This document shows positions 12,311-59,148 of a stretch of DNA of 64,000 nt, in pieces (within the stretch, counting starts at the first letter, position 1; every line of letters starts with the position of its first letter). The notes below the pieces were generated by a model. That model was not told where the DNA came from. It searched no databases and saw only the letters and a list, made by a program, of their open reading frames with translations. A program made the position numbers and the translations under genes. This DNA is from a virus. Taxonomy: Duplodnaviria > Caudoviricetes. The stretch lies in the IMG/VR virus record IMGVR_UViG_3300030055_000003; one strand, 5' to 3'.

Positions 12311-13417
12311 TTAGCCTAAACTTACCTTAATTTTATTTATTACATCTTTAACAATAGGAATTACTTTATTTACTCTATCTCCTGTATTATAATCCATATC
12401 AAATTCATGTTCATCTCTACACATCCACGTTCTATCAATTATAGCTTCTTTATACTTATTCAATAATAGTTCTATATTACAGTTTTTAAACTCTTCTCTT
12501 TCCTCCTTTGATAGAATACTTAAAAAGTCTTCTGCTATTTCATTTTCTTTATACTTTAACTTTTCATCAATTATATCATCCATAATATAAACTATAGAAT
12601 CTAAAGTAACAACTTCACCACTTTCTAAAATCAAATTATTATCTTTTATTTTTGATATTTTAGCCTTATAATACTCATATTGCTTATTATTAACTAATGT
12701 TGTTATATCTAAAATATCTCCTATAATATAAATGGACTCTACTCTATTCTTATCCAATGTATTATTATCAGCATAACATTCATAGATTTTATTATATTTT
12801 ATTTCAAATCTATTCTTCCAGTTTTCATTTTCTACATTATGCTTATCTAATGAATATTGAACAAAACTAGATACACATTTAAATAGTTCCTCAATAGCTT
12901 TTCTATCTACATATGGAGTTCTAATTCCAGCACTATTTAGATCGCCTTGACAATTAAAAGTAGTTCCACAATAAACTATATATCTTTCATCTTTTCCTTC
13001 TGAATCTACACTCTTGTTTATCTCATAGAAATCATCACAAGCGAATCCTTCAGTTGTTTGTACTTTTGAATATCTAATATCTCCACTTTGATATTCATGT
13101 TTTTGACCATCTATTCTAGTGTCATCATTTAATTGATAATCAAGAATCCATTTTAAATCCAATATCATAGGAAAATCATGAGTACATCTACTACCTACTA
13201 ATTTCCATTTTATAATTTCATTGTCGTTATCATCCCAATCTACTACTATCTTCTTAAATACTTTTACTGTATAGTAATAATACATAATTCCTTTTTCACT
13301 TGTTAAGTTTATATAGTCATCAAACCCTTGTATTGATGGATTTGAAAATTCTAAAATCATAAAATCGCTTTCCCATCTGAACCTATTCTTTATTCTTTTA
13401 AATTTAAAACCTTTCAT
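12311..13417 (-). CDS. Hypothetical protein
   Basis: 368-aa ORF, no recognised motif. Confidence 0.75.
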   Translation of the reverse strand: MKGFKFKRIKNRFRWESDFMILEFSNPSIQGFDDYINLTSEKGIMYYYYTVKVFKKIVVDWDDNDNEIIKWKLVGSRCTHDFPMILDLKWILDYQLNDDTRIDGQKHEYQSGDIRYSKVQTTEGFACDDFYEINKSVDSEGKDERYIVYCGTTFNCQGDLNSAGIRTPYVDRKAIEELFKCVSSFVQYSLDKHNVENENWKNRFEIKYNKIYECYADNNTLDKNRVESIYIIGDILDITTLVNNKQYEYYKAKISKIKDNNLILESGEVVTLDSIVYIMDDIIDEKLKYKENEIAEDFLSILSKEEREEFKNCNIELLLNKYKEAIIDRTWMCRDEHEFDMDYNTGDRVNKVIPIVKDVINKIKVSLG

Positions 13418-58029: not shown

Positions 58030-58136
58030 AATGTAACTATCCTCCTTTTATGTTGCTTATTTATACTCTATTTATGTAACTAGCATTGCACTAGTGTTTT
58101 AAATTCTGTCTTACTTAATTGTCTTGAAATGTTTTT

Positions 58137-58194
58137 GTAAGCGACTAGCCTGTCAGCTAGTTTCGGCGACTCTCACGTTCCTTATCAAACTTAC
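58137..58194 (-). ncRNA. Type I hammerhead ribozyme, U3-A8 core variant
   Basis: GUAAGU-UUGAUAA-stem II-GAAAC-UAGC(UGACAG)GCUA-GUC^GCUUAC; stems I and III pair fully. Confidence 0.75.
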
Positions 58195-58530
58195 TTATAA
58201 TACTTCATTAATTCTTTCTTGCATTCTTGTAGCAATTTTATTAACAATGGATTGAGCAAATTTTTGTATTTCTAAATAATCGAATACCTCAGATAATAAT
58301 TTTGAATCATCTTCTTTTCCATCATCACATAAATCACAAAATTTTTCATATTCATATTTAGTATCTTTTAATGCTTAAAATTTTTCATCTATATCTTTTA
58401 AACCAATTCCAAAAAATTTTCCGATACCTTCAATCTCCATAACATCTATAAACCTTGTATTTCCTAATTCTATGTTTACATATTCACTATTTAACTTTGC
58501 AACTGCTTTTAATAATTTTTCATTTAACAT
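58195..58530 (-). pseudogene. Hypothetical gene interrupted by an in-frame TAA
   Basis: RBS+ATG at 58530, TAA at 58375-77, frame continues to stop at 58195. Confidence 0.6.
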
Positions 58531-59148
58531 AATCCCCAATCTCCTTTTATGCCTTAACCTCCAACTGGTAGGTGGCTTTAATTTTTATTTATATTCTATT
58601 TCAAACTTTCCATATCCTAAATATTTAATATTATTATTTGGTAAATTTTCAACACCATTATCTATATAATCTTTTGCTCTCTCAAAGGTACAAAAACTAT
58701 TTTTTGCTATGTACTTTGCACATTTATCTCTAGTAACTATTCTCTTCATAACTTCCAACCCCTTAAATTTATTTTTATCTGTTACTTAACTTCTGATATA
58801 AGTATAACATATCATCTAAAATAATACAATACTATTTCTGTTAATTTGTTTAAATATTTAAAATTATTTTATTATTGCTGAAAATACTGGATTTATCAAC
58901 ACTATATAGAATCTAATACAAATACAACTCATATCGACTATATAAGCGTTTTAAATTTCATAGGTCTTAGTATATGTCTATGTGTCTTAAAATTGATTCT
59001 GGTGCATTGTGGTGAGTAAGTTTTATTGTTTATGGGTTCTAAAACCTCAGTAGATAAAATTATAGTTTTAAGTTAATATTGATTATTGTTTTCAATTAAA
59101 TATGGATAAAAAAGAAAGCTACCTTCTACAGTAGCAATAATAGTTTTT

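Follow-up and report, generated by a model that had tools for sequence, protein, structure and literature searches.

The window analyzed here is a 64,000-nt stretch of a 140,944-base IMG/VR virus record (IMGVR_UViG_3300030055_000003; Duplodnaviria, Caudoviricetes) with a G+C content of 25%. The stretch is contained in 23 peat DNA sequencing runs. A single RNA run, from wastewater (share 0.05), yields short dissimilar pieces only, none of them over the element described below. This element occupies positions 58194-58137. All genes around it are encoded by the minus strand, with no terminator-like site found between those near it. The region codes for a P22-type antirepressor, a Rha-like protein and a ParB-like protein, together with many small ORFs that have no family.

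The element is flanked by a 59-codon open frame upstream and a gene for a 68-residue protein downstream (Table 1). The first-pass annotation placed its start right behind a stop codon, and this codon is the TAA that closes the 59-codon frame. We note that this frame lacks an ATG, GTG or TTG start ahead of its final nine codons and continues in frame from a 54-residue ORF (58375-58539, minus strand), the two being parted only by a TAA at 58377-58375. By our own estimate (~0.001), it is too long for a chance opening in AT-rich DNA. The segment 58195-58539 (minus strand) may thus represent either a nonsense-interrupted or read-through gene of 114 residues, or a gene with an odd start. The downstream gene is preceded by a strong Shine-Dalgarno sequence (AAAGGAGG, 58048-58041, minus strand), and its product has no relatives in IMG/VR.

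Table 1. Features of the predicted ribozyme and its surroundings, in window coordinates.
Feature	Position	Strand	Remarks
Upstream open frame, 59 codons	58195-58374	-	TAA at 58197-58195; no Pfam/PHROG match
Stem I, 5' strand, GUAAGU	58194-58189	-	identical in L076
Core strand, UUGAUAA	58188-58182	-	U3 58188; U4 G5 A6 58187-58185; U7 58184; A8 58183; A9 58182
Stem II element, 17 nt	58181-58165	-	17/17 identical in L076
Core, G12 A13 A14	58164-58162	-	
Stem III hairpin	58161-58144	-	six Watson-Crick pairs from A15.1-U16.1; 6-nt loop
C17, end of GUC cleavage triplet	58143	-	predicted cut 3' of C17, between 58143 and 58142
Stem I, 3' strand, GCUUAC	58142-58137	-	A1.1-U2.1 in L076
Conserved leader, 57 nt	58136-58080	-	A-rich tail, YUCAAGACA box, hairpin 58094-58080
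Downstream gene, 68 residues	57823-58029	-	hydrophobic segment; no Pfam/PHROG match

Direct reading of the minus strand from 58194 to 58137 reveals all the invariant bases of the hammerhead core and three helices in type I order. The core includes U4, G5 and A6, A9, the G12-A13-A14 stretch, the A15.1-U16.1 pair and an H17 nucleotide (not G) ahead of the cut. Positions 3 and 8 form a U3-A8 pair that replaces C3-G8. Stem I comprises six pairs, of which the one adjoining the core, next to the scissile bond, is a U·G wobble (G1.1 with U2.1). Stem II starts with G10.1-C11.1 and G10.2-C11.2, followed by an AA bulge, two further G-C/C-G pairs and a loop of seven nucleotides. The sequence quoted in the first-pass annotation reads exactly as given there, and the core, the three stems, the GUC triplet and the position of the predicted cut are all confirmed, as is the description of stem II as short and bulged. 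The ribozyme has a G+C content of 48%, against 25% for the genome.

The whole ribozyme fold is not more stable than that of shuffled sequences (z = -0.5). The stem II pairing that is compatible with a hammerhead has a free energy of -9.3 kcal/mol, and a rival four-pair hairpin that engages C11.2 is better by 1.6 kcal/mol. No convincing tertiary contact from loop II to stem I was found in the ribozyme or in its homologue L076, which is described below. In some members of the class, loop II seemed able to pair with the 5' tail, but this pairing is inconsistent across members and was dropped.

A descriptor for type I hammerheads with relaxed rules (C-G or U-A at positions 3 and 8; minimum stem lengths of 5, 2 and 4 pairs) finds a single match in the 140,944-base record, which is the ribozyme, and none in 400 dinucleotide shuffles. 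A rough hand estimate gives an expectation of 0.004 matches per record under the loose rule and ~1e-4 for stems this long. Since a scan of many gigabases would allow a few chance matches this good, it is the comparative evidence that decides. Loose type II and type III descriptors run over the genome returned AT-rich junk inside genes only.

Ten IMG/VR stretches selected by a GAAA strand plus stem III are all hammerheads (10/10), seven of type I, whose architecture is very close to that of the candidate, and three of type II. A stem-filtered pattern for the U3-A8 core retrieved at least eight type I hammerheads in at least seven contigs, L076 among them. AT-rich phage contigs with type I hammerheads are L020, L022, L024, L042, L054, L056, L060, L110 and L115. 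The candidate resembles this class in its 6-pair stem I, a stem II that opens with GG and closes with CC, C17 and the A-rich 3' tail; several members also share an ACUAGC...GCUAGU stem III, and U3-A8 occurs in at least six contigs. In contrast, the class has a stem II of four regular pairs topped by a UYAAU loop, a stem I that ends in UAA/UUA, and two to four copies per contig (up to four in L024), whereas the candidate is a lone copy. In L054, three paralogues share the same stems I and II, with C3-G8 in one and U3-A8 in two.

As a side observation, six of these contigs (L020, L022, L024, L054, L110 and L115) carry two to four type I hammerheads each, with near-identical stems I and II. These clustered copies sit 10-15 nt before ATG codons, and none is matched by Rfam 15 at gathering thresholds.

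The search against the Rfam hammerhead models that the first-pass annotation had proposed was run and gave no match. Rfam 15 reports no match at gathering thresholds over the window, none at E<=10 over a 451-nt segment and none elsewhere in the genome, and RF00163 and RF02276 run singly over the record found no match either. As a positive control, textbook type I hammerheads with C3-G8 (CUGAUGA) from L020, L022 and L024 were searched, and these too lack an Rfam match at the gathering cut-off; the L022 hammerhead has none even at E<=10. RF00163 alone recovers one of the several hammerheads in the L024 record, at 25.9 bits (cut-off 34); it recovers no hammerhead from the L022 record. Because Rfam misses textbook relatives, its negative result says nothing about the candidate. 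Rfam 15 is blind to the AT-rich phage class of type I hammerheads, textbook examples included, which is a new point.

R1, a covariance model of our own, was trained on 13 phage type I hammerheads that include neither the candidate nor L076; its calibration was shortened, so that E-values are rough. The top R1 match in the window is the candidate, which is recovered at full length with exact ends (58137-58194) at 23.6 bits and E ~0.003. The L076 ribozyme scores 25 bits. No R1 match at E<=5 occurs in the remaining 77 kb of the record. Across 833 kb of phage loci, all 21 matches at E<=0.05 are hammerheads, five of them from outside the training set. The candidate and L076 are the two weakest members under this model, compared with 36-74 bits for the others. 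The second-best match in the window (13127-13158, plus strand, 17.4 bits) is an AT-rich stem with a UUGAUAA string; stems II and III are absent, and we regard it as noise.

Comparative evidence comes from L076 (IMGVR_UViG_3300030339_002069), a provirus record of a related phage with 23.6% G+C. L076:417-473 is the sole true ribozyme homologue among the matches listed in the IMG/VR pattern search, and homology over the whole module extends across L076:417-535. The two sequences are identical at 35/35 bases across stem I, core and stem II. In stem I, the wobble U·G becomes U-A (A1.1-U2.1). Stem III has diverged with eight differences and retains six pairs, with one double change from A-U to G-C and one change from C-G to U·G. 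No change breaks any pair. With a single homologue, and with stem II and the 5' strand of stem I unvaried, two-sided covariation is confined to stem III, and stem II is left unsupported by it. That stem II is fully conserved where stem III has drifted may point to a role that depends on its sequence. The first-pass reading of the motif as a hammerhead is thus backed both by a homologue with compensatory changes and by a match from an independently trained model.

Scans of metagenomes, genomes and further viral sequences turned up no additional ribozyme homologue. L154 duplicates the L076 sequence, and the pattern matches in L149, L150, L151, L152, L153, L155, L156, L157 and L159 were rejected as chance occurrences in DNA that is coding or richer in G+C. 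Relatives of the 238-residue antirepressor have no ribozyme homologue in their loci, and blastn and tblastn searches against INPHARED phages gave no match. One further sequence, a low-depth contig of 151 nt from peat DNA run X22 (record 2), aligns without gaps to 58135-58198, differs there by nine substitutions and seems to be a third variant of the ribozyme. It is unlike the window upstream from exactly 58198, the same module boundary as in L076. The X22 assembly unitigs break at 58169-58198.

Homology with L076 spans 58198 to 58080 and ends there, so that the ribozyme is homologous together with the leader and the leader hairpin as a 119-nt module. Gene order is again common to both records 13-19 kb further on, whereas the genes directly on both sides of the module are unrelated. 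Within the module, the stem III sequence and loop differ, and the tail from stem I to the leader box is 7 nt longer in L076. The leader hairpin stays paired despite two one-sided changes and a two-sided one. In the window, only minus-strand RNA can form this hairpin, by means of G·U pairs. A more distant relative, L002, has the leader and hairpin without the ribozyme, ahead of a homologue of the window's 116-residue gene. As the leader stands alone in L002 and the flanking genes are swapped in L076, the ribozyme was added to a conserved leader at a mosaic gene junction. The ribozyme, the 57-nt leader and the hairpin travel as one module, a second new point.

The leader copies (window 58080-58136, minus strand; L076:474-535; L002:10340-10398) each precede different genes and follow a common pattern, a YUCAAGACA or CUUGACA box and then a CTAG-N7-CTAG hairpin. 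A sigma-70 promoter within the leader, with hexamers read by eye, is unsupported.

Hammerheads between phage genes and hammerheads with U3-A8 have been known since 2011, when natural U3-A8 covariation and the in vitro activity of such variants were reported (Perreault et al., PMC3088659). The first-pass annotation had called this pair rare; it is present here and uncommon, but not new, being found in at least six other phage contigs as well. The same study described hammerheads that flank genes in prophages and lie between phage genes, and proposed that they process long phage transcripts into gene-length mRNAs (PMC3088659). The candidate is like these type I phage and prophage hammerheads (Rfam clan, RF00163) in its core, in a helix order with stem I open, in its short stem II, in its intergenic position within a same-strand run of small phage genes, and in the U3-A8 covariation. 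It differs from them as a lone copy rather than one of a gene-flanking group, in scoring below all Rfam thresholds, and in its irregular, sequence-conserved stem II of 17 nt, with no recognizable pseudoknot or loop-loop contact.

Taken together, these comparisons suggest that 58194-58137 (minus strand) is a type I hammerhead of the U3-A8 variant that would cut a long message and uncouple the flanking genes, a reading to which we assign a probability of about 0.72. It is probably a genuine hammerhead and a new example of something already described in phages, and it would most likely act as a constitutive or slow self-cleaver of read-through transcripts. The ribozyme would be part of a long transcript of the minus strand that carries small phage genes, early or regulatory ones. 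After all three stems had formed, the 2'-OH of C17 would attack the next phosphate. The upstream mRNA would be left with a 2',3'-cyclic phosphate and with nearly the whole folded ribozyme as a 3' cap. The downstream RNA would begin with a 5'-OH at G 58142 and continue through the conserved leader and hairpin into the 68-residue gene, whose cleaved mRNA would have a 113-nt leader. Through mRNA decay, such a cut may uncouple the flanking genes in stability and therefore in expression. In Bacillus, RNase J1 degrades the 5'-OH product of the glmS ribozyme, so that in a Firmicute host the cut could lower, not raise, expression of the downstream gene.

It is unlikely that the RNA has the shape of a hammerhead but is catalytically dead or very slow, the block being kept for another reason, as a folded 3' end shielding the upstream mRNA, as a binding site for a protein or as a part of the conserved leader. 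Stem II and its loop are unchanged in L076 although stem III has drifted, a pattern that suggests recognition of the sequence and not of a plain helix. Such a role would fit this pattern, and it would also fit the more stable competing fold of stem II, the wobble at 1.1-2.1, the lack of a clear tertiary contact and the occurrence of the leader without the ribozyme in L002. However, the catalytic core is intact in both homologues, U3-A8 included, which selection for structure only would not demand, and two-pair stems II are common among active natural hammerheads (PMC3088659). We consider it highly improbable that the resemblance is due to chance, a G+C-rich stretch between genes having matched a permissive pattern in a very large scan. 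The expectation per 141 kb does leave room for a few such matches over many gigabases, the Rfam search is negative and the R1 score is modest; against this, L076 keeps the motif with pair-preserving changes between other flanking genes, the shuffles contain no match, and the candidate is the best R1 match in 141 kb, with exact ends.

The least probable alternative is a conditional ribozyme: through pairing between loop II and the leader, the speed of cleavage would follow the availability of the leader, giving a regulated switch in place of a constitutive cutter. Over 4-5 pairs, loop II (UGAG(A)) is complementary to a (U)YUCA stretch of the 3' leader that immediately precedes the AGACA box. 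This is the sole complementarity found at a homologous place in the window and L076, with one U·G to C-G change, and both loop II and the leader box are conserved. Furthermore, pseudoknots often stand in for loop-loop contacts where stem II of a hammerhead is short (PMC3088659). On the other hand, 4-5 pairs in two sequences are too short for claiming a pseudoknot, one terminal pair is missing in L076, and several other places show chance helices of equal length. We also regard as rather improbable a broader version, a portable 119-nt module (58198-58080) that carries its own stop codons, hammerhead, leader box and hairpin, keeps its relative place in mosaic phages as the adjoining genes are swapped, and would be made conditional in its cutting by pairing of the invariant loop II with the leader. 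If true, this would be a regulated hammerhead of natural origin, tied to a junction between phage gene cassettes.

A self-cleaving hammerhead thus remains our preferred reading of the locus. The escape of the AT-rich class from Rfam 15 implies that hammerheads are undercounted in phage annotations. The present case contributes a further natural U3-A8 hammerhead, a probable one, from a large temperate-type peat phage; its stem II is unusual and conserved in sequence. Uncoupling as a principle is not new; should cleavage be confirmed, the ribozyme-leader module would be a compact test case for how RNA self-cleavage uncouples neighboring genes in phages.
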